Source: Macrostomum lignano
Lineage: Eukaryota
DNA length: 64,000 nucleotides
Assembly: GCA_002269645.1 (NCBI GenBank)
Contig: NIVC01000522.1
Span: 486,996-550,995, forward strand
Direction of reading: 5' to 3'
The notes below the pieces were generated by a model that was not told the DNA's origin, made no database searches, and saw only the letters and a program-made list of their open reading frames with translations. Both the position numbers and the translations under genes were made by a program. Positions 2,561 to 64,000 of this stretch are shown here, piece by piece (the first letter of the stretch is position 1; every line of letters begins with the position of its first letter).

Positions 2561-2574
2561 AGTAAGGGGAGTAA

Positions 2575-6498: not shown

Positions 6499-6538
6499 AC
6501 TGTATTAAATGCAATTGTCTGGCTAGAGCCCCGGGCCA

Positions 6539-16470: not shown

Positions 16471-17002
16471 CAAGTTGTTAGGCCGCAAGCTGTTAGACCA
16501 CTAGCTGTTAGGCCGCAAGCTGTTAGGCCACAAGTTGTTAGGCCACAACCTGTTAGGCCACTAGCTGTTAGGCCACAAGCTGTTAGGCCACTAGCTGTTA
16601 GACCACTAGCTGTTAGGCCGCAAGCTGTTAGGCCACAAGCTGTTAGACCACTAGCTGTTAGGCCGCAAGCTGTTAGGCCACAAGCTGTTAGGCCACTAGC
16701 TGTTAGGCCGCAAGCTGTTAGGCCACAAGTTGTTAGGCCACTAGCTGTTAAGCCGCAAGCTGTTAGACCACTAGCTGTTAGGCCGCAAGTTGTTAGGCCA
16801 CAAGTTGTTAGGCCACAAACTGTTAGGCCGCAAGTTGTTAGGCCGCAAGTTGTTAGGCCGCAAGTTGTTAGGCCGCAAGTTGTTAGGCCACAAGCTGTTA
16901 GGCCACTAGCTGTTAGGCCACAAGTTGTTAGGCCACAAGCTGTTAGGCCGTAAGTTGTTAGGCCGCAAGTTGTTAGGCCCCAAGTTGTTAGGCCGCAAGT
17001 TG
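16471..17002. repeat. 15-bp minisatellite (G(C/T)TGTTAGGCC(G/A)CAA)
   Basis: About 35 units. It explains the (VRPQA)n ORF. Confidence 0.96.
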
Positions 17003-18762: not shown

Positions 18763-19473
18763 ATGGCCGACTGCAAAGCCAGCTTTCTCGCTTTCTGCGA
18801 TGCCACAAAGAAAGGCTCAGACAAGGCCAGCGACAAGACAATCAAGAAGATCTTCACCGACTGCAAGGTCTTTCCAGCTCTTAAGATGACTTCGAACGAT
18901 ATGGACATTTCCATTTCCTCCTACAAGGGAAAGGCCAAGCTGAAGGGGTAAAAATCGTTCGATCCTACCGTTAGCATTCCGAAGCAATAACTTGTTTCAT
19001 AGCATTTCTACTAAAACTTTCTCACCCATTCCAGCGACCTCGACTACAATAACTTTTGCGCCTTCATCACGCACTTCTGCGCCGAGGCGGCCACCAAGAA
19101 GAAGGTCTCCGACGCCGCTAAAGCCGAGGCGGATGTGAAGAAGCTGATCGCTGATAACAAGCCGTCTGCCCACGGAGCAACTGTAAAGAATCATTCTGTT
19201 ACATGTAGATCAATTCATTGCACATATCAGCGTATTTTGAGTACACGTAGTTTCACCAATTCGCTACGAAACTGCTTTCAGGCTGCTAGCAAAGACGACG
19301 CCACCTCTCGTCTGACTGACGTCAAAGGCTACACGGGAGCTCACAAGGAGCGCTTTGACGCCGACACAGGCAAAGGCAAAGGCAAGGAGGGTCGCGAGTA
19401 CGTCGCCGACAAGAAGGCCGCGGAAGGATACGTCGGCGGCTACAAGAACATGGACACCTACAATAAGAAGTAA
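18763..19473 (+). CDS. TPPP: Tubulin polymerization-promoting protein (p25-alpha family); exons 18763-18947, 19035-19182, 19282-19473
   Basis: Spliced frame reads ...KIFTDCKV...SNDMDI...HGAT|[47 protein letters not shown], the hallmark TPPP C-terminal motif. GT-AG sites are phase-compatible. Confidence 0.93.
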
Positions 19474-39600: not shown

Positions 39601-42600
39601 GGGCTGCGGTGAGGGCTGAAACCGGTTTTCTATGGGGTTTTTAGGCTCCGATTTATTGGCGATTTTTGCAGGACCATCAGAGAGATTTTAATCGAGATCA
39701 GGGTGAGATTTTTATTATGTCAGCTATTCAGAGTTAGGTTGTGAGACAGATTTTGAGGCTACCACAGGGGGAGGTTTTGAGACTGTCAAGGTGAGATTTT
39801 GAGGCCATCAGGTGTGAGATCTTGAGGCTACCATTTTAAGATTTTCAGATCATCACAGGGTGAGATTTTGAGGACATCACAGGGTAAGATTTTGAGACTA
39901 TCATGGTGAGATTTTGGATCTTTCAGGGGCCGGGTGACATCTTGAGACTATCGGGGTGAGATTTTGAGGCTACCATTTTAGGATTTTCAGATCATCACAG
40001 GGTGAGATTTTGAGGCAATCACATGGTGAGATTTTGAGACTATCAGGGTGAGATTTTGAGACTATCAGAGTGAGATTTTCAGGTTGTCACAGGGTGAGAT
40101 TTTGAGGCCACCAGTTTTGAGGCAATTATTGGGCTACAAAAATGATTTTACTATCAAGTACTAAACAATGTGAAACGGCTTGCCTTTAAATCCAATAAAC
40201 CAGCAATTGATTGATAATAAACCGCTCACGCCTCAGGTGCTGTCATCCCTGCTAACAGTCTGTGCAGAGATCTCAATGGGCCTGGTGCCCGGCATCAGAG
40301 TGTGGGACTGGCCCACCACTCTGGTTCGCGGCGTTCTTATCGACTGCTCCTCGGGCCTGCTGCCTCGGCCGGAGGCTCTCATTAGCGTAGCCGAGTCTGC
40401 CGCCTGCATGCGGGCCAACCAGCTGCACCTGTTCTTCCGGTTGGGCAGCACCGCGCACGCCTGTCCGTACGCGCAGGAGGATCTGCGCAGGGTGGTTCGG
40501 TCTGCCCAGGAGCTGTGCCTCACGCCTGTGCTAGCCATTGATATTGGAATTGCAGTGTCAGATTTGACTCAGGTGAGCAAGGAGCTGCTGGCTTAGACCA
40601 TTTAGGATGTCGATAATCCTTCAGTGTCAAGTGGATTTAGGATGTTGATAATCCTTCAGGTTTGAGTAGATTTAGGATGTCGATAATCCTTCAGGTTTGA
40701 GTGTATTTAGAATGTCGATAATCCTTCGGGTTTGAGTGGATTTAGAATGTCGATAATCCTTCAGGTTTGAGTAGATTTAGAATGTCGATAATCCTTCGGG
40801 TTTGAGTGGATTTAGAATGTCGATAATCCTTCAGGTTTGAGTGGATTTAGAATGTCGATAATCCTTCAGGTTTGAGTGGATTTAGAATGTCGATAATCCT
40901 TCAGGTTTGAGTGGATTTAGAATGTCGATAATCCTTCAGGTTTGAGTGGATTTAGGATGTCGATAATCCTTCAGTGTCAAGTGGATTTAGGATGTCGATA
41001 ATCCTTCAGTGTCAAGTGAATTTAGGATGTTGATAATCCTTCAGGTTTGAGTGTAATTAGAATGTCGATAATCCTTCGGGTTTGAGTGGATTTAGAATGT
41101 CGATAATCCTTCAGGTTTGAGTGGATTTAGAATGTCGATAATCCTTCAGGTTTGAGTAGATTTAGGATGTCGATAATCCTTCAGGTTTGAGTGGATTTAG
41201 AATGTCGATAATCCTTCAGGTTTGAGTGGATTTAGAATGTCGATAATCCTTCGGGTTTGAGTGGATTTAGGATGTCGATAATCCTTTAGTGTCAAGTGGA
41301 TTTAGAATGTCGATAATCCTTCAGTGTCAAGTGGATTTAGGATGTCGATAATCCTTCAGTGTCAAGTGAATTTAGGATGTTGATAATCCTTCAGGTTTGA
41401 GTGTATTTAGAATGTCGATAATCCTTCGGGTTTGAGTGGATTTAGGATGTCGATAATCCTTCAGGTTTGAGTGGATTTAGGATGTCGATAATCCTTCAGG
41501 TTTGAGTGGATTTAGGATGTCGATAATCCTTCAGGTTTGAGTGGATTTAGAATGTCGATAATCCTTCGGGTTTGAGTGGATTTAGGATGTCGATAATCCT
41601 TTAGTGTCAAGTGGATTTAGAATGTCGATAATCCTTCAGTGTCAAGTGGATTTAGGATGTCGATAATCCTTCAGTGTCAAGTGAATTTAGGATGTTGATA
41701 ATCCTTCAGGTTTGAGTGTATTTAGAATGTCGATAATCCTTCGGGTTTGAGTGGATTTAGGATGTCGATAATCCTTCAGGTTTGAGTGGATTTAGGATGT
41801 CGATAATCCTTCAGGTTTGAGTGGATTTAGGATGTCGATAATCCTTCAGGTTTGAGTGGATTTAGAATGTCGATAATCCTTCGGGTTTGAGTGGATTTAG
41901 GATGTCGATAATCCTTTAGTGTCAAGTGGATTTAGAATGTCGATAATCCTTCAGTGTCAAGTGGATTTAGGATGTCGATAATCCTTCAGTGTCAAGTGAA
42001 TTTAGGATGTTGATAATCCTTCAGGTTTGAGTGTATTTAGAATGTCGATAATCCTTCGGGTTTGAGTGGATTTAGGATGTCGATAATCCTTCAGGTTTGA
42101 GTGGATTTAGGATGTCGATAATCCTTCAGGTTTGAGTGGATTTAGGATGTCGATAATCCTTCAGGTTTGAGTGGATTTAGAATGTCGATAATCCTTCAGG
42201 TTTGAGTGGATTTAGGATGTCGATAATCCTTCATCATCCCGCCAGAACACGTCGATCCCCAACGCTCCCGCAGGTGCAAAGCCAGGCAGATGTATTGCTA
42301 GGTGCTTTCCCGCCGAACTGCCCGATGCACCTGGGCCCCCGTCTGTCCGCTCACCTGGCCCAGGGCCCTGAACAGGAGGCGCCGGTCTGGCTGGGCCTCG
42401 GCCGGCAGCATCTCTACTTGGCCTCGTCCGGTTTCTCATTGCCGCCCTGGCTGCAGAAACTGCCAATCACCTGCATTGATCACTGCCTGCCCAGAGACCG
42501 GCCCGAGGACCGGGCAACCTATCTGCACTCTGCGCTGCCAGAATTCGTTCTGGCGCCCGCCACAGGCGCGTGGCTGTCGTTCACCGGCTGTCACAGTCTG

Positions 42601-45634: not shown

Positions 45635-46947
45635 CGAGGGGTGATCAAAAAGTTCTGCAAGTGACCTCACAACTCAGTGTTACAGCAGTCGAGGCGTCTA
45701 ATCAGTGTCACAGTCTCTCAAAGTACTTTCCACCACTATCTGTGCACCATCGCAATGTACCATGTCTGAAAGCAGTCATGGTACTCCGAAGTTGGTATAC
45801 CCTATGGAGCTGAATGTACCGCTTGGGCAAGGTCTTGTATGCGTGAAAACGGCCTCCCAGAAATGACGGATTTGATCCTCGGGAACAGCCAACAGTCGCA
45901 TGGTGCTAGGTCTAGAGAGTAGGGTGGATGGGGCAGCAGCCGGACCCCCTGCTGCTCCAGGCACGCCATGGTTGAGGCCGCTCTGTGCGGTGCCGCATTG
46001 TCATGGTGCAGCAGGAGTCGAGGTCCATGCCTGGTTCGCGCACGTTCCTGCCGCTCCTGCAGCACGCCTGGCAGAACAGTGTCTGTGTAGTACCTGGCAG
46101 TCACTGTGGCACCCGCTGGAAGGATGCTCACCGATACAACACCCTGAGAGTTGAAAAAAATGGCGAACATCCGCTTCCGACTGCGGAATCCGGTCTTCAG
46201 CACCTTGGGCCTCGGGCTCATCTTCTGCCAGCCAGACCATGTTGGACTGCTTATCCTTCATGGTAAAGAAGGGGATCCAACATTCGTCTCCTGTGATGAC
46301 ATCCGACAGTCGTCGTGGGCCGTGGGGCTCAAACATTTGCAGCCACAAGAGACAGATGCGCACCCTCTCTGCTTGCTGCTCCGGAGTGAGAAGATGGGGT
46401 ACCCACCGAGCGCAGGTCTTTGTGCGGCCCAGTTGCTCATGCATGATGTTATGAGCACTTCCATAGCTGACACCAAGCTCATTGGCAAGGAATCTCAGCG
46501 TAATGCTCCAATCCTCACGAATTATTGCATCGGCATGGGCCACGACATCTTCGGTCACGGATGTCCGGGGTCGGCCAGACCTCGGTTCCTCGTTGAAGCT
46601 ATCCCGGCCTTCCAAGAAATGGCGCAGCCAGCGGGCAACCGTGTCAAATGATGGAGCAGAGTCAGCTAAAACATTCACGAGATCGGTGTGAATCTCAGTC
46701 ACTTTGCAACCAAGTTGCATGCACATAAAGATATAGAAGCGAACACTGTCTTTTGATGTTTCCATCAGCTACTGAAAACACATGGAAAATATATGGCTGT
46801 GAAATTTTACTGGAGCACATTTGAAAGCCAAAAATGCATATAAATATAGCAAACAGATATAGCCGCATATGCGTAAGTTTTTGGCTTTTGCCGATTCTAT
46901 AACTAAAAGCTATAACAAAAGGTTGCAGAACTTTTGATCACCCCTCG
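45635..46947 (-). mobile_element. Mariner DNA transposon (DD34D), defective
   Basis: About 27-bp TIRs CGAGGGGTGATCAAAA(A)GTTCTGCAA with a TA TSD at 45633-34 and 46948-49. Transposase motifs RWVPH, ITGDE, HDNA-34aa-D and YSLDLAPCD. Frameshifts near 46230 and 45800. Confidence 0.95.
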
Positions 46948-46949
46948 TA

Positions 46950-48225
46950 AAATCTAGACTGCAGAGCTAAATTGGCGCTAAAATCTAGACTGAGGAGCTG
47001 AATTGGCGCTAAAATCTAGACTGAGGAGCTGAATTGGCGCTAAAATCTAGACTGCTGAGCTGAATTGGCGCTAAAATCTAGACTGAGGAGCTAAATTGGC
47101 GCTAAAATCTAGACTGAGGAGCTGAATTGGCGCTAAAATCTAGACTGAGGAGCTGAATTGGCGCTAAAATCTAGACTCCTGAGGAATTGGCGCTAAAATC
47201 TAGACTCCTGAGGAATTGGCGCTAAAATCTAGACTCCTGAGCTGAATTGGCGCTAAAATCTAGACTCCTGAGCTGAATTGGCGCTAAAATCTAGACTCCT
47301 GAGGAATTGGCGCTAAAATCTAGACTCCTGAGCTGAATTGGCGCTAAAATCTAGACTCCTGAGCTGAATTGGCGCTAAAATCTAGACTCCTGAGCTGAAT
47401 TGGCGCTAAAATCTAGACTCCTGAGCTGAATTGGCGCTAAAATCTAGACTCCTGAGGAATTGGCGCTAAAATCTAGACTCCTGAGCTGAATTGGCGCTAA
47501 AATCTAGACTCCTGAGCTGAATTGGCGCTAAAATCTAGACTCCTGAGGAATTGGCGCTAAAATCTAGACTGTGAGGCTGAATTGGCGCTAAAATCTAATC
47601 TGCGGCGCTAAAATCTAGACTGTGGAGCTGAATTGGAGCTAAAATCTAGACTGCGGAGCTGAATTAGCGCTAAAATCTAATCTGTGGCACTAAAATCTAG
47701 ACTGTGGAGCTGAATTGGCGCTAAAATCTAGACTGTGAGGCTGAATTGGCGCTAAAATCTAATCTGCGGCGCTAAAATCTAGACTGTGGAGCTGAATTAG
47801 CGCTAAAATCTAATCTGTGGCGCTAAAATCTTGTCTGTGGAGCTGAATTGGCGCTAAAATCTAGACTGAGGAGCTGAATTGGCGATAAAATCCAATCTGT
47901 GGCGCTAAAATCTAGACTGTGGAGCTGAATTGGCGCTAAAATCTAGACTGTGGAGCTGAATTGGCGCTAAAATCTAGACTGAGGAGCTGAATTGGCGCTA
48001 AAATCTAGACTCCTGAGGAATTAGCGCTAAAATCTAGACTCCTGAGCTGAATTGGCGCTAAAATCTAGACTGCAGAGAGCTGAATTGGCGCTAAAATCTA
48101 GACTGCGGCGCTGAATTGGCGCTAAAATCTAGACTGCAGAGAGCTGAATTGGCGCTAAAATCTAGACTGCAGAGAGCTGAATTGGCGCTAAAATCTAGAC
48201 TGCGGCGCTGAATTGGCGCTAAAAT
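46950..48225. repeat. 31-bp minisatellite (GAATTGGCGCTAAAATCTAGACTGAGGAGCT)
   Basis: About 41 units with length variants. Confidence 0.96.
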
Positions 48226-49103: not shown

Positions 49104-51088
49104 ATGCGCAAAAGTACACAAGCTATACTGCCTATGCACTCGGCATTGACCGCGTGTCTGGCGAAGCCCGTGCCATGCCAGCAGCAGGCATCGCCAGTTC
49201 GCTGTCGATCGATGTCTAAGCTATCGAATTCGCGCCTGGCCTTGCGCAGCAACGAGTTCCTTGATTCGTCGCGCAACTCTTCAGCTGGGACAGCCGCCAA
49301 CAGCGGGAATGGAAGCAACGGCAACAGCAGCTTGGAACGGGAGCGCACCAGATCCGTGACCTCCTACTACAACCAGTCCGCTATCGACGCCGCGGCCAAG
49401 AAGAACTCGGTCCGTCTGACCCCGGCCTCGCTGCTGTACTCCGGCCGCGCCACCGACGAGAACTACGTGCTCCGGTCGGCTCAGTACCTGCAGAAGGAGC
49501 TGCCAGTTCGCATCGCCCATCGGATCGACGACTTCCGCTCGCTGCCCTTCATCATCGGCTGCAATCCGACCATCCTGTCCGTGCACGAGCTGTACATCCG
49601 GGCATTCCACATCCTGTCTGACTACCCCACCGTCACCAACTTGGCTGAGGAGGAGCAGTACTCCGGCGTAGTTCGTCAGCTGCTCGACGACCACAAGGAC
49701 GTTGTCACCATGCTAGCCGAGGGCTTCCGCGAGTGCAGCCGGCACATCCGGGATCCGCATCTGGTCAGGCAGTTTCTTGACAAGACCCTGACATCGAGGC
49801 TGGGCATCCGCCTGCTGTGCGAGCACCATCTGGCTCTGCGCCAGGAGCGTCCGGACTTTGTCGGCGTCGTGTGCACCCGGTTCTGCCCTGGCGACCTCAT
49901 CGACAGCCGGGCCGCTCACGTGGCCAAGCTGTGCCAGATGAAGTACGGCCTGGCGCCTGCGGTGAAGATCAACGGCAACAGGAAGGCGGCCTTCTCCTAC
50001 ATCATCCAGCCGGTTGAGTACATCGTTACCGAGGTGCTGAAGAACGCGTTCCGCGCCACGGTTGAGCACAACAGGGCCAAGGTCGGCTCCCTGCCCGAGG
50101 TCACCATCACAGTGGCTAACAATGATGTCGATTTCATTATTCGGTGAGTCTGTACGACTGTATTTGCGTCTTAGGCGCCATTTCTAGCTTCTCTGGCGCC
50201 ATTTCTAGTTTTTCTGACACCATTTTTAGTTTTTCTGGCGCCATTTCTAGATTCTCTGGCGCCATTTTTAGCTTTCCTTGCGCCATTTCTATTTCTTCTG
50301 GCGCCATTTCTAGATTCTCTGGTGCCATTTTTAGCTTCTCTGGCGCCATTTCTACTCTAGCTTCTCTGGCCCTGGCGCCATTTCTAGACTCTGGTGCCAT
50401 TTATAGACTCTCTAGCGCCATTTCTAGACTATCTGGCGCCATTTCTAGACTATCTGGCGCCATTTCTAGACTCTGGTGCCATTTATAGACTCTCTAGCGC
50501 CATTTCTAGACTATCTGGCGCCATTTCTAGACTATCTGGCGCCATTTCTAGACTCTCTAGCGCCATTTCTAGACTCTCCATTGTTCTCGAATTTAAAATT
50601 ATTTCGTAGAATAATTTTCTAGAATAACTTAAGAAGCAGTTTTGAATAGTCTTGGCTGGGTTGCGTGTGTGCGTTCATTCTCACACATTAATCAAAAAGC
50701 GCTAGAAATGTTCGCACTACCCTACTTAAAGTTACCGATGAGTAGAAAAAATAGCGTATAACGGTCTATTTTTGCTAATTACATTAAAATTTGCAGCTTC
50801 AGCGATCGCGGCGGCGGCATTGCGCACGACATCGCGACCAGCATATTTGAGTACCATTTCTCAACTTCCGGCAAGCACAGCGACGAGAATGAGTCGTTCT
50901 TCGACCGGGTCTCCGAGTCCCGTTCGGTGGGCCCGATGCACGGCTTCGGCTTCGGATTGCCAACCTCGCGCGCCTACGCGCACTACCTTGGCGGCCGCCT
51001 CACCTTCGAAACCATGCAGGGTGTCGGCTCGGATTTCTACCTGCGCCTGAGGCATATCGACGGCAAAGGGGACAGCTTCCGCATTTGA
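49104..51088 (+). CDS. BCKDK: Branched-chain alpha-ketoacid dehydrogenase kinase; exons 49104-50143, 50797-51088
   Basis: SYYNQSAID...VRLTP..LLYSG...[17 protein letters not shown]; [12 protein letters not shown]; [12 protein letters not shown]; spliced R|FSDRGGGI; [21 protein letters not shown]. The start codon is uncertain. Confidence 0.94.
50170..50580. repeat. 21-bp minisatellite (TCTGGCGCCATTTCTAGACTC) in the BCKDK intron
   Basis: Directly visible. Confidence 0.93.
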
Positions 51089-51824
51089 GGGTCCTTGGTA
51101 ACCCAGTTCATAATTCACTTCACTTGTCGAATTTTATTAATGACTCACAACTACGGTTTTTTAAAAACGAAATTTAACAACAGAAGACAGCACAAACTGG
51201 CATGTTAATTCCACCAATAATCGATTTGATTCCGTATTAAAACTGTATCAGTGATTAATTATCCAAATCGTCAGGTAATTGAGCACTTTCTTATTTGTGC
51301 TATATTATTTTCGCTTGAATTTCTTCATTCTCTGTTCTAAAAGCTGTTTCTTCATTTAAAATTCGTTTCTTCTGTTATACTACTTACTTAGATCGTTGTT
51401 AGCAGTAGTCAGGTTTGCGTGTTCAGAGAGTCTCAATTCCTGTCTGCCTACCTGGCTGCTCCAGCCTCAAATTTATCAAGCCTGGTCAGTCAACTCGCGC
51501 CTGACTTTACAAATTTTTAACCTTTGCTCTCATTTAGGCTCCTCTGTTTACCCGCGTTGCTTATGGTGATGTGGTCTCTGTTTTTGTTATCGTGAGGGCA
51601 ATTCCATTGCTTAAACTCTGCCATAGCTGAAAAAAATCATTAATATATTCCAGTCACTCAAAATTACTTTCTAGCAGTGCTGTAATCTTCCGTTATTATT
51701 GTAAAGCTTCAAAATATTACAATAATACAATAGTAGATTGCATGTAGGTAGAAACTCTTCAAACTTGATCAAAGGCTTTATAGTAGAAGGCATGAGGGGG
51801 CTTCTGGGACAAAATTTTTCACCT

Positions 51825-52036
51825 CCTCCATAATCCCATTAAATCCATCCATATTATCCCTGACAGAATCAGAAAAAAAGGGGGGTCGCACTCGCTCCGA
51901 AAACGTCCTCCATAATTCCATTAAATCCATCTATATTATCCCCGACAGAATCAGAAAAAAGGGGGGTCGCACTCGCTCACAAAACGTCCTCCATAATCCC
52001 ATTAAATCCATCCATATTATCCCTGACAGAATCAGA
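51825..52036. repeat. 81-82 bp subterminal tandem repeat (2.6 copies)
   Basis: CCTCCATAAT.CCATTAAATCCATC.ATATTATCCC.GACAGAATCAGA begins at 51825, 51907 and 51988. Confidence 0.9.
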
Positions 52037-52247
52037 GCATAACAGGTGTCCTACTTGTTCCGAAAACTTCAAACATAATCCCATTATAATCCACTGACAT
52101 CCACCCATAGCATATTCGAAACAATCAGAAAATAATCTGCATTCTTCTCCCCACATTCAATCCGCAACGTGCTACCACATCCCTAAGACTTTAAATCATC
52201 AGCGCAGGGTCCTTACCCTTTGAAAAAAAATTAAATTCTCAATAAAA

Positions 52248-52490
52248 ATGTTTCCAGTTGTCTTTCCAGGTTCCTATTATACTCAGCCTCATCCATTGTA
52301 CAAATCCAAGTACCAATGCAAGAAGGAATGCAGCGAGTACATGAGAAAATATTGGCCCGATGTTGATATCAATGCCCCTAATATTAATCTAGCTCTTCAA
52401 AGACACTGGTTTCATAAGTATGGAGTAACCTATGTAAAAGATTACGACAGCTACTATAACTTTGCAGAAATCATTAGGCAGTTGCGTTAA
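52248..52490 (+). CDS. Polinton small ORF, 80 aa, Tyr/aromatic-rich, unknown function
   Basis: Intact ORF with an AAAAATG start context like the other viral genes. No family was recognised. Confidence 0.55.
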   Translation: MFPVVFPGSYYTQPHPLYKSKYQCKKECSEYMRKYWPDVDINAPNINLALQRHWFHKYGVTYVKDYDSYYNFAEIIRQLR

Positions 52491-52764
52491 AAAACCGAAA
52501 AACCAAAAGGCCAAAAGGCCAAAAGGCCAAAAAGGCCAAAAGGCCGAAATCGTTTTCATTTTGGCCTCGCGCGAGGCCGAAATCGTTTGCATTCTGGCCT
52601 TCCCTCGAGACGGAATTCTTCCTCGGCTGGGCTCAGTTAAAGTGAAAATCTCTCTCCCCCACGCGCGCTGCGCCCACACACGTAAGAGATTTTGAGTACA
52701 CATGCGCGCATTTTTTCATACCACTCTATTCTCGGCAAGCATACTTAAAAGGGAACGCATTTTC

Positions 52765-53628
52765 TCACATTCTCTCAATGATTAACGTCAATACAAACTC
52801 TTCCCCATTAAAATCAACACCCACCCCATCTTCAGTCTCAAACTGTAGCACAATCTCGTGAATCTCCTTATTACTCAATACAACTCTTTTCACTGGATTT
52901 GGTTTCTCTACCACCATCTGTCCTCCAGCTACAGAGTTGGAGATATTGTACAAAATATTCGTTCGCTTTCCCTTAAATACCCAATCAAGACTGAGATTAG
53001 TTCTGATTAGAATATTCAAACCCTTTACAATGTCTGCTATATTGGGTGCTAAGAACAAACCGCGTACACTTTCCCGGGCCATGCTAACGGTCCCCAATGC
53101 TTGAGTGGCAGTCCGCGCCGCGGATTCTGCCTTATAAACTTTCTTCTCGAATCCCAGTTCCCTATACCAAGTGTCATCTTTAAACTCAACCTCCGCATCT
53201 TTGTGAACTTGCATGACCACTCTCATTACAGTGAGATCATAGGTTAGTTTGACAGGGAACAGTTTCTTCTCTGGCTTACTCGCATCAGGTGTCTCAAAAT
53301 GGCCTCTCTTAGTAAAGACATTTTCTAGAAAGTTATTGTAGGTATCCACACTTTGCGTGCTCACATGGAATACCACAGGGTCTGCTGCTGCACCTTTCCA
53401 TTTGTAATAAAACTTATTATTTGCTGCCATCACATTGGGAACGTTTGACCAACCAGTGAAGTCGTTAAGATAGACATGGTAATTAGCGCCTGGATCCAGG
53501 CGAATCGCCTGCTCTAATTTTTCAACAAACATCCCGTTTGAGTCATTAATTCGCCCAGTTATTGTAATAGGAATGCTCTCCTTGGAGTGTGAAATAATAT
53601 TATTTAGTCTTTCAGCAATCGCTTCCAT
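52765..53628 (-). CDS. Polinton minor capsid protein (penton, single jelly-roll)
   Basis: C-terminus NILYNISNSVAGGQMVVEKPNP...EIHEIVLQFETEDGVGVDFNGEEFVLTLII matches the Polinton penton pattern. It sits directly downstream of the MCP. The probable ATG is at 53628 (AAAAATGG). Confidence 0.8.
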   Translation of the reverse strand: MEAIAERLNNIISHSKESIPITITGRINDSNGMFVEKLEQAIRLDPGANYHVYLNDFTGWSNVPNVMAANNKFYYKWKGAAADPVVFHVSTQSVDTYNNFLENVFTKRGHFETPDASKPEKKLFPVKLTYDLTVMRVVMQVHKDAEVEFKDDTWYRELGFEKKVYKAESAARTATQALGTVSMARESVRGLFLAPNIADIVKGLNILIRTNLSLDWVFKGKRTNILYNISNSVAGGQMVVEKPNPVKRVVLSNKEIHEIVLQFETEDGVGVDFNGEEFVLTLIIERM

Positions 53629-53652
53629 TTTTCCACCCACAAAAAAAAATAT

Positions 53653-54925
53653 TTAAACTTTACTGGATGAATTGTTGATCATGTTAAGCTTCACCTTCCT
53701 CTCAAATGCATAGATAATGTACAAGTCCACGGGTGTTGCGTCAGTCCTCTCAATGTTAGTCACGATATTCACAGGGCTGTTATCAGTAGGCATTTGTCTG
53801 GCAGACACATCAGCGCCAAACATTGGATATAGAGTTCCATATTGAAGAGCTGTGATAGCAATTCCGTTGTTCTCTTTCACAGCCAAGTCGACCAACTCGC
53901 TGTAAAATTTGCTAATCTTGTTCTGACTGAAATTTCCATTTTGTGGCAGTGCAGGGTAAAGATTATCACTGATTTCATGCTGAATGGACCGCACGTCTCC
54001 ATGCGTGTAGCGTATAATGCTATTTGGGTTTCTCATATTAATAATGATATACCTTGGATTGCTGCATGATCCCTCTTTGATGCAGATGTTTGTTCTAGTT
54101 TCGTTTCGCTCATCTCGACACATGTAGGCCGTGTATGCAACATCAATGTCCTTCTCTATTGCCTTAAGATAGTCTGCTTTTAGTGCAGTCTTTGGCTCAA
54201 TGACTTCCAAATACAGCTCGATTCCGGTTAGCTTCACCTCCATCCTTGTGTGGTCCGCCCCAGTCCACAACACTCTACTGCGATCATCTCTAGTCAGTCT
54301 AAATGTGTAGCTAAAGTTACTAGTCAGTCGATTAAATTTATTACAGAATCCACTCATAAATCTCAGTGGTACAAATACATCAACAGACCGATACAGCGGG
54401 TTTTTAGCAGCATCATCAGCACCTTGCAATGCATAGTTGTATCTCTTCTTCCTCTTTTTATAGCCACTGTCATTGATGTCTCCTTCTTTTTCATCTGCAA
54501 TAAAACCCGCACCACTTCCCAACTGAATAAAATCAGGATTCTCGATCAAACAATGAGCGTCATAGACAATTCCAAAGTTGGCGATTCGCTCCAACTCAGT
54601 GCTCCCATTCGATACACTAAACTCCTTGAACATGTACGCCCAAAAGTTACTGATCAGAGCCACATCCGCATCATGCTTGTCAACGTTAGCACGAGCCGCA
54701 TCCGCACCACCTTTTGTCTTGAATTGAAATGTCATATGGAAGCCGCTCTTAAGACTGTGCACACTAACCAGAGACGACAAATGTCAGTGTTTGACCTGGA
54801 CCCAAATTAGTTTCATTCTGGTTCTCGTGACTCGGAACTCTAACTTGTGTCGCTTTGATTGTGCTATCATCACTCAAAATAGGCTTGTTAATTTTGTAGA
54901 AAACTGGTGTCAGTGGGTCGTTCAT
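53653..54925 (-). pseudogene. Polinton major capsid protein (double jelly-roll), one frameshift near 54770
   Basis: From ATG 54925 it reads MNDPLTPVFYKINKPILSDDSTIKATQVRVP...GQTLTFVVSG, then shifts into the 53653..54780 frame (NFWAYMFKEF...FVPLRFMSGFC...IELYLEVIEP...YIIYAFER). Size and beta-rich motifs fit the Polinton MCP. Confidence 0.8.
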
Positions 54926-54956
54926 TTTTTTAACTAAAAATAAAATAAAATAAGAA

Positions 54957-56193
54957 ATGAAGCGGAAAAGTACACAGCAGATATCTGAATTGGAGAAGCT
55001 AGCACAAGCAGAGAAACGAGTTACCGGGCTAATAAATAAGGAGCAACAATCCTACAATGAGTTTGTCCAAGCAGCTACAGAGTTTCATAAACCCGGGTAT
55101 GGAGAAGCTAAGAAAAATATTGATCAGGTCAAAGAAACTATCGACGACATACAGGAAACCCAAGTGCAAAAGGCTTTGGGCAAAATTCCAGAAGCACCAC
55201 AGATACAACCGCAACCACAGACACAACCGCAACCACAACAATCACAACCACAACAATCACAACCACAACAGCAACTAAAAGTGACAGATAACATTTTTGG
55301 ACCAGTAGAGCGTGTCGAACATGATGGGAAATATGTATTTGGAATAAGTATGTGGAGAAAAAACATTTATAATGAACCAGTGGAATATTATATCGACATA
55401 AATAAGGAAAATATTTCTGTTGTCAAAGGCTCAGAAGCTATGAAAATTCCTTTCACAGAAACCTTACTGACTTTTATGACCAAGAACCAAGAGAGAATCT
55501 CGGACAAACAGCTAAAGAACTATAGAGATCTAGTGACTTTTGCTCTTGCTAGAGATATAGCAATACTAAAGGCCCCAGAAGTCCTGAGACTTATGTATGA
55601 TAACGGTGTCAACCTGACTAGATTCAAAAAGTACAATCACTTTAAACAATGGTTCGATTTGCCAGATCAGGCGGAAGTCATAAAATATCTAGAACAACAG
55701 CAACAGCAACCACAACAACAACAGCAACCGCCACAACAGCAGCAACATTCCACAGAAGAACAAGTACTTAGTCAACTCGAGCAGTTAGACCCTTTGAAAG
55801 TAGCTGAATATAAAAATGATCACCCAGATGCCTGGCAACTCTTAGAACAACACTCTCCAGATCGAATGAACAGAATCAAGCAAAGAGTTTTCACACCTCA
55901 ACAAAGACAGGCGCCACATGACAGTTCCATCTCTGAAAGTGAGCAGTCTTTTGCATCACCTCCCCAGCAGCCACAAGCCCAACCAACTCCACAACCTCAA
56001 GACCAACGCCTCAACTGGAAAAGGAATAGCTGAAATCTACAAGCGAGTAGCGGTTCTTCTAGGAGCAGCAAAGACCGGAATGAAAGATGAGAATAGAAAA
56101 GAGTTCGTTCACATCCTCAATAAAATGCTTGAGAGAAAATACATCGATAAGAGGGCGAGAGAGCTTCTGCTTTCGCGGTTTAACAAAAAATAA
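54957..56193 (+). CDS. Polinton Gln-rich protein; probably frameshifted into the 55918..56193 frame
   Basis: 358-aa ORF with two Q/P tracts. The overlapping frame supplies TGKG..IYKRVAVLLGAAKTG...EFVHILNKMLERKYI, resembling a helical C-terminal motif seen in Polinton proteins (recalled, not searched). Confidence 0.65.
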
Positions 56194-56209
56194 ATTTCTA
56201 TTTAAAAAG

Positions 56210-56587
56210 ATGCCACTTATTTTCGAAAAAGACATTGACAAATACTATGACAAAGAGGAACTTAATCTCATTAAACGCGGATCTGGACTTTTCCCTGCAG
56301 GCCACTATCCAAGAAAAGAACGCTCAGGGAACGGTCTTGCCGATTTGATCGCTCAGGGGGCCAAGATTTTTAAGGTCATTGGAGAGAACAAAGAGAACAT
56401 CAAGAACGTTGCCGAAGCGGCTGGCAGTGTAGCCACAGCAGCCAAAAAGATAAAGGAGACTGTAACACCTAAACAAGAGATTCAACCGCTGGCTCCGCTG
56501 GCCCCAAATCCAGACAATGTGGACCCTGCAGTCTATGAGAAGATGAGAGCTAGCATTAAAAAGGGAAGCGGTTTCAAATTTGACTAA
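56210..56587 (+). CDS. Polinton small basic protein with GxG motifs and an amphipathic helix (putative core/membrane-active protein)
   Basis: ATG at 56210 (AAAAAGATG); RGSGL, RSGNGLADLIAQGAKIFKVIG, KKGSGF. Confidence 0.65.
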   Translation: MPLIFEKDIDKYYDKEELNLIKRGSGLFPAGHYPRKERSGNGLADLIAQGAKIFKVIGENKENIKNVAEAAGSVATAAKKIKETVTPKQEIQPLAPLAPNPDNVDPAVYEKMRASIKKGSGFKFD

Positions 56588-56635
56588 AGGGTACTTTTCA
56601 AGGGTACAAGACATGTAAGAGTATAAGACTAGTCC

Positions 56636-56735
56636 TGAAATGACACATCTAAGTCCCAAAATGACACATCTAAGTCCCAAAATGACACATCTAAGTCCCA
56701 AAACGACACATTCAAGTCCCGAAATGACACATCTA
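56636..56735. repeat. 21-bp tandem repeat (AAATGACACATCTAAGTCCCA), about 5 copies, upstream of the ATPase
   Basis: Directly visible. Confidence 0.9.
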
Positions 56736-56774
56736 AATGATTTATTATTTAATTTTTTTTCAATCATAGAAAAA

Positions 56775-57560
56775 ATGGACTTCTCAAACGACTTCAATCC
56801 TCACTGGACGCGTAATCAGATTAAGTTTTCTCATCACGAGTCAATTCCGAGTCATTTCAGATGCATTGTTGTTGGTTCATCAGGTTCAGGTAAAACATTC
56901 AGAGTCTTTAACATGCTTCTTAGACCTGGCTTTATCGACTATGACACTCTGCACATCTACTCTCCCACACTGTATCAAGATGAGTATAGAATGTTGATTG
57001 CAGGGTTTCAAAACAAGCTGAACAAAGAGGACATTATTGCATGTTTTAATAACCAAATAAGCCTTCCCAGTAACCCAGAAATTGTAGCTGCTGAATATTC
57101 AAAGCACCTCAAAGACAATGAAAAATGGCAGAACATTAAAGTGTTCACCTATGGAGATCCACAGGCTGATCCAAAGACCAAACTTCTACCCCAACCAGAT
57201 GAGCTAGAAAAGGGGAGAAAGCATTTGATCGTCTTTGATGATTGTATGACAGGCCCACAGAAGCAGATAGAAAACTATTTTACAAGAGGACGACATAACA
57301 ATTGTAATGTAATTTACATTGCACAGAACTGGTTCGAGCTCCCGAACAAAACAATTCGTGGGAACTGCAATCTGATTCTCCTGTTTCCAACCATTCCACA
57401 GGACAGGTTAAAAAGATTTTACAATGAGGTCATTGCGCCTGCCTATTTCATAAATCCAACAAAAAACTCAAGCAGAAAGATTTCACAGAGGAATTCGTTA
57501 ATCTTTGCTATGACAAGTGGAATCAGCCTTACCAGTTTGTGATTATCAGCAAAGAAAAAA
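56775..57560 (+). CDS. A32-like (FtsK/HerA) DNA-packaging ATPase; C-terminus frameshifted
   Basis: Walker A GSSGSGKT, Walker B LIVFDD, FTRGRH, YIAQNW, IRGNCN. Confidence 0.93.
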
Positions 57561-57590
57561 GAACTGTAATTTAAAATTTGCTATTAAAAG

Positions 57591-58332
57591 ATGTCAATAA
57601 ACTTTGCAGGTGAATCCATTTCTGGCAACAGCGCTCTTACATCAGCTCAAATATCCATCCTTGACAGGCGATATATCAACAGCGACGAAAAGATCCCAGA
57701 GATCAAACTGAATAAAAACAGACTGAAACAATTAGAGCGCTCCATGCACCAGCTACAGATAAACATAGAAGATCTCAGGCTTAAAGTAGCTAGACAGAAG
57801 TTTGACAGTGATAAGCTTTATGCACAGTTGTCACAGCACTAATGAACTTAGGTCAGAAATAACTTCGATAGTCTCGCAAATCAACGGTTTAAGAACAAAT
57901 TTAGCATCGACAATTAATCTTCTGAGAAACTCCATTGATAGGCGGATGCGCATTCTTGAAGAAGGAGTTTTCACAAACACAGTTAAAGTGAGGAATTTAG
58001 AAGAGTTCATGAACCAGTCAACAGCATTGCATGATAGAATTAAAGAAAACGTCGCAACCAACACAGGTAAAGTGAGGAATTTAGGAGAGTTCATGACTCA
58101 GTCAACAGCGTTGCATGATCAAATCAAAGTAAGAATTACTGCAAATAAAGTCTTTGTAGATTTAGTTTTTACCGAATGGCAGAAATCGGTGAGAAGAATC
58201 GGTCGTCTTGAACGCTTGCATAATCTCAAAAACATTGACGCTGAAGAGGCACCACAGACCACAAGGGAAACAAGTGATCCAACCGACTTGTTTGAGATCA
58301 TGCGTAGAATGGAGCTCACAGATAATGAATAG
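57591..58332 (+). CDS. Polinton coiled-coil protein (two overlapping frames, probable frameshift near 57830)
   Basis: MSINFAGESISG...RRYINSDE followed by heptad-like sequence and internal repeats (NT.KVRNL.EFM.QSTALHD x2). Confidence 0.55.
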
Positions 58333-58440
58333 GCAGATTCAGAGACCTGTTGCCGTCACTGCAGACGAAGCAATCAACCGTAAAACAAATCTAACCACCA
58401 CCAACTAGTTGCCGATTTTTTTAAAAAAATTCCCTTAAAA

Positions 58441-59030
58441 ATGGATGCTCAAAATTCTCTTTATGATCCGAACGCTCCCACAACACCTAGTGCACCTAGT
58501 GCACCCCAATATGAGCAACAAAAACTCTACCCCGTCATTACTTGTAACTCTCAACAGTTTCGACTAGTGGAGATTCAAAAAATGCGCGATGATCTTGAAA
58601 AAAATATTTTCCACAACACAAAGAAAATTAAGCGCTATGACAACCACTGTAAATTTTTCGACTACAGCAATATGATTCTAGGATCTGTGTCTGTTCTATC
58701 TGGATCTGCTGCAGCTGTCTCAGTGTTGCCAGTCATCACAGCCCCAATCGCAATCCCGCTCGGCTCTGTGGGTGCTGCATGTGGACTTATTTCAGCAATT
58801 ACTGGAGCATTAGCGCGAAACAGGCGAAAAAAACTAAAGCAGCTACAGGAGAAGCAAGTAAAAGAGAAAGGGGTGCACACTCAATCATAGGGTACATTTC
58901 AAGGGCAATCGAGGATAAGTTCATTTCAGAGGATGAGTTCAAAACCATTCAGGATCTTTATGAACAATCAATTCGAATGAACTTGAACATGGTCGGTACT
59001 GATGACATGAGTCAGCTGAGAAATGAACTC
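58441..59030 (+). CDS. Polinton membrane protein (GasderminX-like), frameshifted near 58870
   Basis: N-terminal PSAPSAP and LYPVI; FRLVEIQKMR; KKIKRYD; about 48-aa hydrophobic G/A-rich segment; continuation SIIGYISRAIEDKFISEDEF. The family name is from recalled similarity only. Confidence 0.7.
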
Positions 59031-59098
59031 GAGAAAGTTCTTCAACATTATGTGGAAAGAAGGACAACGAGAAGACAACGAGAAATGCACAATGAACC

Positions 59099-59497
59099 CT
59101 ATGAAACACAGCGAATAATTTCCTTGTAGGTCTTTCGTGTTTTGGTCATTGCATACAAAACAGTCATGCACAGCTCACCGCAAATATCACTGCTAAGACC
59201 TTGGAGAATAAAGTCTGAGCGATAAATTTTTTTATTATTTTTTCCCTTCATATAATTTCTTAGCTCTTCTGGTACTGCCGTCCCATAGCTATCGAAGTAA
59301 TAACACTTGTGCTTGCGATCGGGATCAATCACCCAGCAAACCCAATGAGATCCTGGCTTATCGGTGGTGTCAAAGTTCATGATGCCGCATTCTTTTCTTA
59401 GAGGAAAATCAGGCAGAGTGTCCCTCATAAATATTCCTCTAAAGTTTGGGATTTCCAGTTCGTTAGCCAAATCTTCAAGAAAGTTATTTGTCGTCAT
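59099..59497 (-). CDS. Adenain-like cysteine protease
   Basis: FRGIFMRD, GIMNFD...GSHWVC, YFDSYG, Q...SDICGELC (H-D-Q-C catalytic set). Confidence 0.93.
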   Translation of the reverse strand: MTTNNFLEDLANELEIPNFRGIFMRDTLPDFPLRKECGIMNFDTTDKPGSHWVCWVIDPDRKHKCYYFDSYGTAVPEELRNYMKGKNNKKIYRSDFILQGLSSDICGELCMTVLYAMTKTRKTYKEIIRCVS

Positions 59498-59546
59498 TTT
59501 TTATGAGGTTTATTAAACTTTCTCTTAAACCTAAACAATCTCTAAC

Positions 59547-62500
59547 CTAACCTCCATAACCTAATACTCCTAACCTCCTAACTCCACCTCCTAAACCTAA
59601 TCTCCAGTGCCCGAACGGTAGACTGTTGATATTGTCATCAAAAATGAATCTCTTGTTATCTGCACCTGACAGTCCAATCTTCTTTTGCTGAATTGTGTGA
59701 ATAATATGGTTTTTAGATTGTAGCTTTGAGAACTCATGTGATGTCTTTTTGTTGCAATTCAAGGCGTCTCTGTATTCAGCTTCATTAATTTCCTTCCTAA
59801 CACACGTTTCGGAATTCCCTTTGATTTTTTATTGGGTCTGACGACTCACATTTTATAAAATAGGACTTTGCTCTCAACCCAATGAATTCAGTGATTATGT
59901 CACCAGCAATCTCGTCCTTCATTTTCCCAATCACTTTCTTGTTAGTGGCGTCAAACACTTGATCGCCATTCTGTGTCCTGCAAGATTCATCATACTCAGA
60001 CAAGTCAAACAAATCTTTTTGCTGCAGCATGTCCTGATAAATGTCTTCTGTTTGAATGTCCATAATAAAACTGTCTGTGTCAGTGTACAAGAGTTTCATT
60101 TTATCCTTGTACTGCTGCTTCATGCCATAGAAGAACTGGTACATCAGACGTTTTGATTCGTCGAGAACAGTGACACCTGTATAGATCGGCTTGCGCAGCG
60201 TCACCTTGGTTTTGTAAAATATGATCACACCTAAGTAGCTATTAAAGATATGGAGTTCTTTGAATGTTGGCTTTGACATATTTGCCTGAATAACATCAGG
60301 CTCTGATGAGGTAACAAGTTTCAGGTTTGTTCTTTTCCGCTCATTCTCAAGAGTCTTGCCATAGACAGAGTTGTTGGCCAACTTAAAGAGGTTCTTGTCA
60401 AAGTCGTTGGTTGCTTTGGTCCTAAACTGGGTGTTCTTATCAATGTAGGGTTTCATCCACGCTTCCTCTGTAAATGTAAGAGCCCTGTGAACTTTGGTGA
60501 CCCTGCAACCAAGTGAGATAAAATACTGAAGCAGTTTGTAATGGATTTTGTAACGTGTCTTGTTGTTTAGATTCTGTGTTAGTTTCTCTGTATGTTCTTT
60601 TTCTGTTCCTGACAGTGCCAAGTTCCATTATTATCATTGGGAGTTTCGATTATTTTCGGGCACTTGATGTTCTCTGGGAAGGGTGGAAAGTCAGAGAAAT
60701 AGTCGTGAAGCTCTGGTGGAATGTAAACATCAACCTCATAAATGGCAGCCAATGAAAAGTCCCACTTTGTTCTGATGAGGGTAGCCATCGAAAATCTCTA
60801 ACTGGAAGATCTTGACTCATCGCCCACCCGTAGAGATTATTAGCGTCCAAGTAAGTAATGTAGTTTGAGGGCTGCTCCTTATTGTAAGATTCAATGTAGG
60901 GATTGTTTGCTTTTGCATACCTGTTAACGCAAATTGAGATTCCCCCTCGCTTTGACGATTCGACAAAATTGTACATGTCAATGTCTGTAAGAAGTTCAAT
61001 GTACCAATCTGGATCTTGATCCCATTTCATTTTAAGCAAAGATTCCCAGCTAGTGGCAGGCAGAGACACATAATGTGCTGGATCGAGGCCATATGCTGTG
61101 TACCAGGTGTATCTGAAGGTTTCAAACACATCGGCCAGCAGAAACACATCTGTGAAGAGGTAAAGCAGGTGATACTGGAAGAAGTTTTGACAATTAAAGT
61201 AATTATAGACATGCTTCGCGTGCTCATAGTCTTTGTCAGAGATTCCAGAGTCTGTTAGCTTTGAAAAGAACTTCTCCTGTGGTGGTAAACCTTCTTCAAA
61301 TACGTGATACCAGTAATATTTTCATAGGGGTAGAAGCCTTTGGTTCTCAGGAGTTTAAATGATTCATCAGTGTTGTTAATTTTACTTGCAAACATCTTTG
61401 TATATGTACATTGTTCATCTTTTAGATTCTTGCTTAGTTCGTCTAGACTGGCAGCTAGAAATTGATATGAATCCTTCAGTCTTATTTTACCTGTACCCGA
61501 ATTATCCTGTTTAATATCAACACACTTAAACTTCTCCTTGTTCTCTGCGATGCAATCAAGGTGTATGTCTGGAATCATGCCGATTTTTTCAACTATTAAA
61601 TGCATGTCATAGTTCTTTGCGTTGTGACAAAATATCGTTAGATCATGAATGTTCGATTTTAGCTTTAGATTACAGGTGTTATGCGCTGCACCTCTAAATT
61701 TCCCAGTAAAGTGGCAGTGGTCCCTAACGGTGGGTTTTTAATATTAGTGCAAGTTAAATGTTTCCTGCAGATGTGCATTGAGTTGCTGATAGGAAATTGC
61801 TTTCATCCTCCTCAGTCATCATTATTGGAACAGGTTGAAGGGTGCTAATCACTTTTTGCAACTCTAACATTCTGGCAATAAACTGCTCCACACACTGCTC
61901 TCCAAAGAAATAATTATACTCAACAAGTCCTTTTGTAGTAATAAAGGCATATGCTACTGATTGGGACATGTTTTTGAGTTTGAGTTTGTTTTGAGTTTCT
62001 GGCACGATTGAGCATTCGAAATCAGCATATAAACAAATGGGAGCTTCTCCATCTTGTGATAGTTCTTAAAACGGAGATACTTCTCTTCAGCTGAAGGAAG
62101 AAGCAGTTTGTTGGGTGATCCTCGCATGATAATTCATGCTCTGTTAGCTTTTTCAAAGCGTTCAGCAGTCACTGTAATGCTTAAGGCACAAGCGGCAGAT
62201 GGCAACAGCCTCGTGATGATTATTCAACTGCTTGTGAATGAGTCTTGAAAGATCTTTAATCCAAACATAGTGAGCCTCCTCTAGTAAATTACCAATCACT
62301 AGAAGATCCACTTCAGTCCGCCTTTTCCCCTCAGGATCTAAAACGTCTTTGCTACATCTGACCGGTTGAACTTTCTCAGTTTTTTCACTCCACTCAAAGA
62401 CTGTGATTCTAATTTTGTTATTAAACACTTCTTCTAGCTTTGGGATCTGAGAGATGCCAAGCCTCCTTTGTCAAACCTGATTCCCTTCTTTTCGCATTCG

Positions 62501-63392
62501 ATGAGATAGTAGTTGAAATAATTTTGATAATTTGAGGTTCTTTCGCGGTGGTGTGGGACACTAAAAAGTGCAGAAAGAACTGCCCATAGAGCACAGCAAT
62601 TGTCTTTATTTTTAACATTTATGCAAGCTTTTTTGCCGGCTAGCTTATGGGAGCTCTATATAAGAGGAGGCTTTAAGTGGGTCATATTTCATGACCATGA
62701 CAGTCGCTCTTTGAATCCCTCCACGACCCATCCGGAACCTCTGGATGTAAACGCTTCAATTTTCTTATTGACATCTTGAAGGAAAGGATCCAGTGTGTCT
62801 GTTGGGGTGAATGGCTTTGCCTTTGTTGTCATGTAATACTCGAGATGCTCAGTGGGTTTTGCAGGCATATAAAACGCAATCTTGAATGATATCTGTAGTT
62901 TAAAGGTCTTGCGTGTTTTGAGTGTGGTGATCAACAACTGATTGGATGCTGTCTTTATAGTCGTAGATGTTTGCGGTGGTCTGCTTATGGGATTGTGTAC
63001 TCTATGTAATGTTCTGTAAACTTCCTCTGTGCAAAATTAATCTCTTCATGGCAAGCTCCGACTCTTTTAAATGGATTAATTGCTCTAATTTCTCTTGTTC
63101 CTGCTTATTTTGTGGGTACTTTGCTTTTTCACCAGTGAGAGTTTCGTAATTTGTTAACTAAGTTGCGACTCCTCTCTTGGTGTTCCTTTGCAGGATTTTT
63201 TATAGGCACATACTGGTTGGATTCTAATTGATTGATGATTTCCAACTGTTTTTCATAGCTTCCCAGGTGACCAGGGTCGGTGTTTGAACTTTTGTTTGCA
63301 TGCTTCTCTTAGTAAATTACTTTTGTCTTGAAATGAGACGCCTTTTGAAAAATTTTGTTGACTAAATCTTTTGCTGGATTAGCTTTTGGCAT
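59547..63392 (-). pseudogene. polB: Protein-primed family B DNA polymerase with an endonuclease VII-like insert; many frameshifts
   Basis: EAFTSRGSGW; YLRFKNYH; YADFECS; CHIC...VRDHCHFTGKFRGAAHNTCNL; CHNAKNYDMH; LKDSYQF; LRTKGFYPY; YLDANNLYGWAMS; KLANNSVYGKT; YTDTDS; FIGLRAKSY; NKR...SLPFGH. Probable start at 63392 (AAAAAAATGCC). Confidence 0.95.
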
Positions 63393-63534
63393 TTTTTTCT
63401 CTAAAATATAAAAAAAATTTTGAGGGTGACCACCCTGATAGAAAAGTTGAACTGTTTCTACATCCTATCAGTAGCGTTTAGGTTTATGAAGCTGGATAAA
63501 GTGGGGTTTTAAACCTCATCACATGCGCATTATT

Positions 63535-63966
63535 GTAAACCCAGCATTGTGCAGTGTCATGATGGCTTTGACAATGTCAGACTTGCTTACAGAATTTTCA
63601 TGCTCACAATCATCACGATCGGGGCAGCCTCTCCTGCCTTAATTGTTATACCTTTGTCTCTTGCAATCTTTTGCAATTCAAGCTGGTGGGCTCTATCATT
63701 ACCAGCTTTAACAGCAGTTGCTACACCTCCAGCTACACCACCTGCGGCACTTACAGCGCCTGCAATGATCGGGAATAAGAGCTGCTAATGGTAGGATTCC
63801 TCCTGACTTTTCATCTGTGATGCTGTGTCTTTGTTCATTACACTGAAGTATTTGCTGCGTGGGATCGATTTTTACTTTGCACCTTTAATTGATATAATAC
63901 CTGCGTTTCTTTGATTCAATGATTTTATTGAGTTTATTGATGGTTACTGGTTTCAATCTTTGTCAT
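63535..63966 (-). pseudogene. PZ/cupiennin-like Polinton protein, frameshifted
   Basis: Minus-strand frame EKSGGILPLAALIPIIAGAVSAAGGVAGGVATAVKAGNDRAHQLELQK matches the conserved GGxLPL...GG..GGVA..V motif of Polintons (recalled). AAAAAATG at 63966. Confidence 0.65.
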
Positions 63967-64000
63967 TTTTTATTTTAATATTTTAATTAATTTCCGCTGT

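Follow-up and report, generated by a model that had tools for sequence, protein, structure and literature searches.

What occupies the DNA that follows the BCKDK gene in the window analysed here (64,000 nucleotides of Macrostomum lignano contig NIVC01000522.1), and does it belong to a living family or to a dead one? From position 51782 to the window edge lie 12.2 kb of dense intronless reading frames with a GC content of 38-42%, which we read as the left part of a Polinton of the adintovirus type, integrated in the host genome. The original prediction had placed such genes, intronless and tightly packed, immediately after BCKDK, and both the gene identities and an exact AG terminus at 51782 bear out its endogenous Polinton/adintovirus. 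The PolB, major capsid protein (MCP), ATPase and protease features of a Polinton are all present, and no Polinton feature that was tested came out negative. We consider it probable that this is the left part of a multicopy, self-synthesising Polinton that is missing from the site in two DNA runs, with a predicted integrase beyond the window, predicted particles, and frame breaks that are mostly assembly errors.

Capsid, packaging and replication genes

The MCP gene (53653..54925, minus strand) is interrupted by a frame change near 54770. Its segment 53653-54783 matched PF21738 with an E value of 5e-6 to 6e-6, slightly short of the cut-off, and this family was found in 77 of 79 aligned capsid members, while both capsid pieces matched P0001 with 77-79% identity. 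Prediction of the capsid structure had been proposed as a check, and modelling the larger piece from the 79-sequence alignment gave a confident double-jelly-roll (DJR) model (pLDDT 92.3, pTM 0.91). This aligned with PBCV-1 at Z 20.6 (rmsd 3.4, 305 aligned), with Sputnik (Z 18.9), EhV-201 (18.8), faustovirus (18.4) and mavirus (17.6) as further top matches. The top structural matches were exclusively DJR capsids, with unrelated folds reaching Z ≤6.4 and Foldseek in agreement. The hexon originally proposed is corroborated by the Pfam match and the model together, and the product of 53653..54925 is predicted to be a DJR capsid.

Identity between the capsid and the nearest named structures was 8-11%. 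A word-indexed search returned seven relatives at 67-76%, which are clusters within P0001-P0013, and a HMMER scan returned 283 representatives at E ≤0.001; among those aligned, P0134 reached 42% and the others ≤27%. P0001-P0013 and P0134 come from short ENA, JGI and Logan contigs of 0.9-5.8 kb. In a quick, midpoint-rooted tree of 91 rows, limited to representatives of 400-520 aa and made without bootstrap, the window capsid grouped with its close relatives at 100% SH-aLRT and with P0134 at 99%, separate from the clade holding the capsids of IMG/VR loci L005 and L006. Judged by these sequences the capsid is evidently divergent and belongs to a small unnamed clade. This clade was not found in the contig collections searched, no close capsid relatives with gene context were present in viral contigs or metagenomes, and the deep alignment gave no conserved seed. 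The 50 best BFVD rows contained no adintovirus hexon; a single row, at rank 39, bore the label Adintovirus penton.

The neighbouring gene (52765..53628, minus strand) has an open frame of 287 aa and adjoins the MCP gene. BLAST matched it, at E 1e-8 to 4e-6, to ORFs at four of 14 IMG/VR loci (L005, L006, L007 and L013), all four of which carry a capsid gene, and its Atlas look-alikes (0.98) were unnamed viral clusters. It had no Pfam, PHROG or PDB match, and PDB sequence searches with the MCP and penton profiles gave nothing meaningful. The penton of the original prediction thus finds support in the BLAST matches to capsid-linked ORFs but in none of these three databases, and from homology and position we regard the product as a likely penton, the minor capsid protein.

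An A32/FtsK-like packaging ATPase (56775..57575, plus strand; frame change near the 3' end, at about 57480) matched Pox_A32 at E 5e-6 (26.5 bits against a cut-off of 22.8) and the ATPases of L005 and L006 with 32-37% identity (E 1e-39). The adenain-type cysteine protease (59099..59497, minus strand; open frame, 132 aa) scored 21.8 for Peptidase_C5 against a cut-off of 21.3, matched the adenovirus protease 1avp in the PDB at E 0.003, and shared 29-41% identity with the proteases of eight IMG/VR loci. With both Pfam matches past their cut-offs, these two claims of the original prediction are confirmed; neither gene had close relatives with gene context in viral contigs.

The remaining genes are accessory in character. 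A Gln-rich protein in two frames (54957..56193, plus strand), which we tentatively label PZ-like, gave hhalign E values of 0.11-0.13 against a two-sequence profile of its L005/L006 counterparts, and its C-terminus reached z 3.2 against one of these two relatives; its gene precedes that of a small GSG protein, matching the position in L005 and L006, and the PZ-like gene proposed earlier is thus weakly supported. The 125-aa basic protein with GSG motifs (56210..56587, plus strand) has a layout like L005:5205 and L006:5671, with non-significant pairwise z scores of 0.7-2.1, and is a candidate protease-processed core protein in a cupiennin-like position. It is followed on the plus strand by a coiled-coil protein in two frames (57591..58332; 84 + 180 codons; weak coiled-coil Pfam matches below cut-off) and by a hydrophobic-hairpin protein, also in two frames (58441..59129), whose pieces each match one ORF in L005 and in L006 at E 2e-7 to 2e-3. 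The best of these matches (E 2e-7 and 2e-6) uphold the membrane-protein gene of the original prediction, and among the PZ-like, GSG and gasdermin-like labels only the last has a significant match. The names GasderminX-like and cupiennin-like are tentatively carried over from PMC8502044 (seen in part). Towards the window edge runs a broken gene with an adenovirus pX-like core domain (63587..63884, minus strand), matching Adeno_PX at E 2.7e-4, under the cut-off, and the pX-like parts of L003 and L013 at E 0.01.

The gene for the protein-primed PolB (pPolB; 59547..63392, minus strand) lies in 11 pieces, one of which has 451 homologues at E ≤1e-10; a profile of 67 relatives mapped to the 11 pieces colinearly, from 62970 to 59601, with ten frame changes. 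As originally proposed, it contains both an endonuclease VII-like insert and GSGW (Pfam polymerase B and endonuclease VII pieces were identified). The vOTU Cys and His motifs, found in 70 and 68 of 76 PolB relatives, respectively, are also in the window, as are the catalytic motifs of polymerase, vOTU and protease. Of the 84 relatives of at least 1000 aa, 78 have GSGW/GSNW and 73 have the VxDH[CD]H endonuclease motif, and homing-endonuclease inserts in polinton polymerases have been described (PMC11161782; 10.1101/2023.08.22.554363; both in part). The DANNLYG motif had been offered as a mark of divergence; it was not found in the paper text searched, but is commonplace in this PolB class (102 of 120 listed relatives) and was ruled out as such a mark. 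The proposed divergent lineage therefore stands for the capsid and falls for these polymerase signs. PF03175 was weak in two of eight full-length relatives (E 7e-18 and 4e-15) and absent from the other six. The best PolB identities, 42-53%, were to proteins from metagenomes and from Elysia, Exaiptasia, Macrosteles and Rhizophagus. In a quick tree with 59 rows the window piece lay amid relatives from animals, fungi and metagenomes and had no starred sister group, and phage records gave no PolB match.

These genes would fit a cycle that starts from an excised linear copy, which pPolB replicates from the AG termini through protein-primed self-synthesis, with the vOTU domain perhaps releasing the terminal-protein part of pPolB (a model from PMC11161782, in part). 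The ATPase would pack the DNA into a DJR capsid whose vertices are formed by penton, adenain would trim the small basic core proteins and the gasdermin-like protein may assist membrane crossing. An rve integrase, presumed to lie in the right arm, would insert new copies with a short target duplication. In the window, where the element is cut by the edge, none of the 22 element ORFs scanned with Pfam matched rve; such an integrase is present in L006, which has the same gene set, and beside this PolB class in L001, L002 and L004.

Copy number and frame breaks

The element was detected in 20 sequencing runs from seven studies of a single organism, which together with a junction lying exactly at the AG terminus makes the contaminant misjoin entertained in the original prediction unlikely. 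Four of these runs (X1, X5, X12 and X15), of which X1 and X5 are DNA-like, were mapped to 50700-64000. Read depth jumps at 51782, with the first two element bins deeper than the element interior. In X5 the depth was 23.8 for the flank contig and 1153-1437 for the seven element contigs listed, a difference of about 50-60 fold; X1 showed a like jump at the boundary, and the element-to-flank ratio was high in a run from 2015 as well as in one from 2024. The element is multicopy and likely represents a young, recently mobile family of roughly fifty copies, a figure to be read with the caution that summed contig depth is a poor measure of copy number and that the flank may itself be duplicated, Macrostomum lignano having duplicated chromosomes (PMC5730564, in part).

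Of 26 coding differences between the window and the runs, 15 were synonymous against an expectation of 27% (p 0.001), in a sample of 40 listed differences out of 459 from which 14 had been dropped (seven in the flank, three non-coding and four of unsure frame). Such a bias is as would be expected of a lineage under purifying selection.

In the window itself the reading frame changes within the hexon, ATPase, PolB, PZ-like, coiled-coil, gasdermin-like and pX-like genes, and the penton and protease frames are open. The full virion module of the original prediction is therefore present in its genes but not intact, with at least seven genes broken and PolB in 11 pieces. These breaks could be real frameshifts in a decayed family, amplified once and now composed of dead fossils; most vertebrate Mavericks are degraded (PMC8097293, in part), and the run contigs include deletion variants and more divergent pieces. 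However, we judge this reading unlikely. The rows listed were 12 of 109 for indels and 24 of 1,029 for loose ends. Some of them coincided with six of the ten PolB frame changes and with the capsid and ATPase breaks, the other four PolB breaks being without a match among the rows listed. As a rule, the indels at the breaks were carried by all, or by the greater part, of the depth of X5, X12 and X15, which indicates that most copies there are without those breaks. Furthermore, half of the X1 records are ≥99% alike, and both the synonymous bias and the existence of an empty site speak against a family of fossils.

The breaks of the window copy are instead likely to be mostly long-read assembly errors. 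Twenty close element pieces (10,465 nt; from 28 listed, the eight more divergent ones dropped) had 53 gap letters and 70 substitutions, whereas four flank pieces (3,112 nt) had no gap letters and 30 substitutions, and this high gap share in the element suggests long-read sequence that was left unpolished, not an ageing copy. The indel places showed no homopolymer enrichment (6 of 12, with a background of 40%), which somewhat weakens the assembly-error reading and counts towards decay. Long-read assemblies can thus give such a family a dead appearance.

No RNA run was listed among those containing the element. X12 and X15, which we tentatively take to be RNA, covered all element bins at a depth roughly equal to that of the 3' exon of BCKDK, and an X15 contig begins at the BCKDK exon-2 acceptor. 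The element may be transcribed, but equal coverage could come from carried-over DNA, given some 50 copies of the element, and we draw no conclusion on expression.

The left terminus and the insertion site

The host BCKDK gene (49104..51088, plus strand) has two exons (49104-50143 and 50797-51088) that sum to 444 codons, and matched PF10436 at E 4e-45. Its exon-1 ORF is 100% identical to Macrostomum lignano BOX15_Mlig003650g2 (443 aa), the second-best match being a Macrostomum lignano paralogue at 73%. The element inserted ~700 nt downstream of the stop codon, and a functional tie to BCKDK was considered and found to be unsupported.

The left terminus (51782..52093, plus strand) starts with AGTAGA, which agrees at five of six positions with (AGT)2, a motif reported at Maverick ends (PMC8097293, in part); at 51824-52093 an 81-82 nt subterminal unit is repeated 3.3 times. 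The terminus is likely to be part of a terminal inverted repeat; no inverted partner lies within the window, the right end being beyond the window edge. Two flank contigs leave the window at this point: the X1 contig matches over 440 of 487 nt, ending exactly at 51781 and continuing with 47 other letters, and the X5 contig matches to position 1255 of its 1524 nt, likewise ending exactly at 51781, before 269 other letters. This demonstrates an empty site and fixes the terminus at 51782, so that the element is missing from 51781/51782 in both DNA-like runs, and the family looks insertion-polymorphic. As these contigs diverge after 51781, the preceding bases (51776..51781) are a candidate left copy of a 6-bp target-site duplication, its length being the literature value for Mavericks (PMC8097293, in part); the window holds this one junction only, and no second copy.

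The filled site is known from the window alone, since the flank-element junction was bridged by no contig among the pieces listed (32 of 14,889). A chimera of assembly or library, in which the BCKDK flank became linked to a free linear genome (episomal or viral) or to a copy that belongs at another locus, would account for this, for the presence of the empty site alone among the listed contigs of both DNA-like runs, and for a gap rate that is sharply unlike between element and flank. None-the-less, we think such a chimera improbable, more so than decay. The join falls exactly at the AG terminus, as it would from integration; the window flank differs from the run contigs at ~1.4% of sites and so possibly represents another haplotype; run contigs lose rare variants, a caveat that applies directly to the missing junction-spanning contig; and the high element-to-flank ratio recurs in runs from 2015 and 2024.

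Relation to known elements, novelty and minor features

The multicopy, self-synthesising Polinton that we favour shares with described Polintons/Mavericks (PMC4028283 and PMC8097293, both in part) the pPolB, ATPase, protease, MCP, a likely minor capsid protein and a weakly PZ-like gene, intronless packing, an AG-type end and a multicopy state. Its gene order differs from the two-module plan of vertebrate Mavericks in the same sources: penton and hexon are directed toward the left end, the PZ-like, ATPase and gasdermin-like genes are directed rightward and the protease comes after PolB.

The element resembles Beta adintoviruses, or Eupolintoviridae (PMC8502044; renaming in PMC12451622; both in part), a likeness drawn from features rather than from comparison with the Terrapene or Mayetiola reference proteins. 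Both appear to have a PolB weakly matching PF03175, vOTU-like motifs, hexon, penton, FtsK/A32 ATPase, adenain, gasdermin-like and pX-like accessories, and integration in animal genomes. In contrast, Beta adintoviruses carry an integrase where the edge-cut element shows none in the window, no flatworm is among the mapped examples consulted, and the window capsid has no named relative above about 27%. Compared with L005 and L006, identities were 32-37% for ATPase, 40% for protease, 43-49% for PolB, 18-19% for penton and 22-23% for MCP, and the gasdermin-like genes are also homologous; however, these loci differ from the window in gene order and orientation, their capsids fall in another clade, and they carry a separate PLA2-like gene and galactose-binding fibre-like genes, none of which was seen in the window.

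Alternatively, host repair, and not an rve integrase of its own, could have endogenised a midsize linear DNA virus (MELD/PLV-like) that lacks an integrase or depends on a helper. This seems to us very improbable: no integrase lies within the 12.2 kb present, the capsid falls outside the L005/L006 clade in the quick tree and relatives without integrase are described, but the element is cut by the window edge at less than the usual 13-25 kb (PMC8097293, in part), rve occurs in four IMG/VR loci with the same PolB class, and the high copy number and clean terminus fit integrase action.

The searched literature, which did not extend to Repbase or Dfam, contained no description of a Macrostomum lignano Polinton/Maverick, in keeping with the earlier expectation that the lineage is probably undescribed. 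Polinton or Maverick is mentioned neither in the main text and three supplements of PMC5730564 nor in PMC12801592, and the adintovirus supplement (PMC8502044) names no flatworm in the part before its tables (first 4 million characters). Mavericks have expanded in the genome of the planarian Dugesia (bioRxiv 10.64898/2025.12.11.693146, in part), a different flatworm lineage in which they are treated as a repeat class, and which we compared by description only.

As capsid-encoding Polintons are common in animals, the element itself is unsurprising. Its capsid marks an unnamed lineage (seven clusters, then P0134, then distant relatives) that now has a host, and the virion question could be brought within experimental reach by an apparently young, multicopy, insertion-polymorphic family in a model animal that can be cultured. 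Particles of animal Mavericks had not been observed as of 2021 (PMC8097293, in part), and expressed polintoviruses have been reported in corals (PMC11131425, in part). A bolder reading, which we hold to be doubtful at present, is that laboratory Macrostomum lignano harbours an active adintovirus family with its own capsid lineage, still inserting, transcribed from particular copies and making particles; if true, this transparent flatworm, ready for RNAi and transgenesis, would offer a first direct look at animal Polinton virions and their transmission.

Outside the named genes, an 80-aa ORF (52248..52490, plus strand) had no Pfam or PHROG match, and Rfam gave no match across 51000-64000. Beside this ORF lies a non-coding segment (52485..52760) with an 8-nt array and a GC-rich palindrome, whose folding gave z about -3 against 30 shuffles (one weak hairpin), and which is missing, with a joint at 52484-52761, from a variant present in all four of the runs mapped. 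We also observed AT-rich stretches ending in AA(A/G)ATG-like starts.

Start-codon context and a deletion variant at the left end of the element

All ten predicted starts of the element genes, between 52248 and 63392, were preceded by an AT-rich stretch with A-rich last bases, by simple count; the start sequence read AAATG in eight genes and AAAGATG in the other two. Judged from sequence, this shared context is possibly a compact promoter or initiation signature common to the element genes. Within the same region, a variant without a 276-nt segment (52484-52761) was present in all four sequencing runs (X1, X5, X12 and X15). Its depth in the DNA-like run X5 was 21.6, which is the level of the flank, whereas in X12 (22) and X15 (55), the two RNA-like runs, it was close to that of the whole element. 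This contrast could reflect transcription biased to certain copies, or strain differences.

The BCKDK 3' end and other host genes

One contig of run X15 (50796-51748) extends from the acceptor site of BCKDK exon 2 to a point ~30 nt short of the element, which suggests that BCKDK has a long 3' UTR terminating just upstream of the insertion. Elsewhere in the window we read by eye exons that we take to be cytochrome P450 (14116-15810, minus strand), TPPP/p25-like (19015-19473, plus strand) and CLIC-like (29626-30216, minus strand).

Accessory genes of related metagenomic loci

The IMG/VR Polinton-type loci L005 and L006 each carry PLA2-like and gasdermin-like genes (L005:3-566 and 3380-4081; L006:1298-1993 and 4150-4683) together with the PolB class of the element, giving a mixed accessory set. 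The PLA2-like gene is described as an Alpha hallmark in PMC8502044.

Other repeats in the window

A frameshifted Mos1-like mariner transposase, with HTH_48 and HTH_32 domain matches, lies at 45650-46770 (minus strand). Non-LTR retroelement and Ty3/gypsy-like pieces (2897-8084 and 10025-13461, minus strand; 1671-2732, plus strand) are likewise broken over several frames, and their translations, read by eye, include endonuclease, RT and RNase H for the former and gag, RT, RNase H and integrase for the latter. A MITE-like inverted repeat (26248-26851) has 118-nt arms that are 95% alike, with palindromes inside. Minisatellite arrays with units of 15-35 nt are numerous (8500-9600, 16400-17000, 40500-41800, 46948-48225 and 50174-50578); one sits within the BCKDK intron, and that at 16.4-17 kb is flanked by inverted arms (16143-16229 and 17866-17959).
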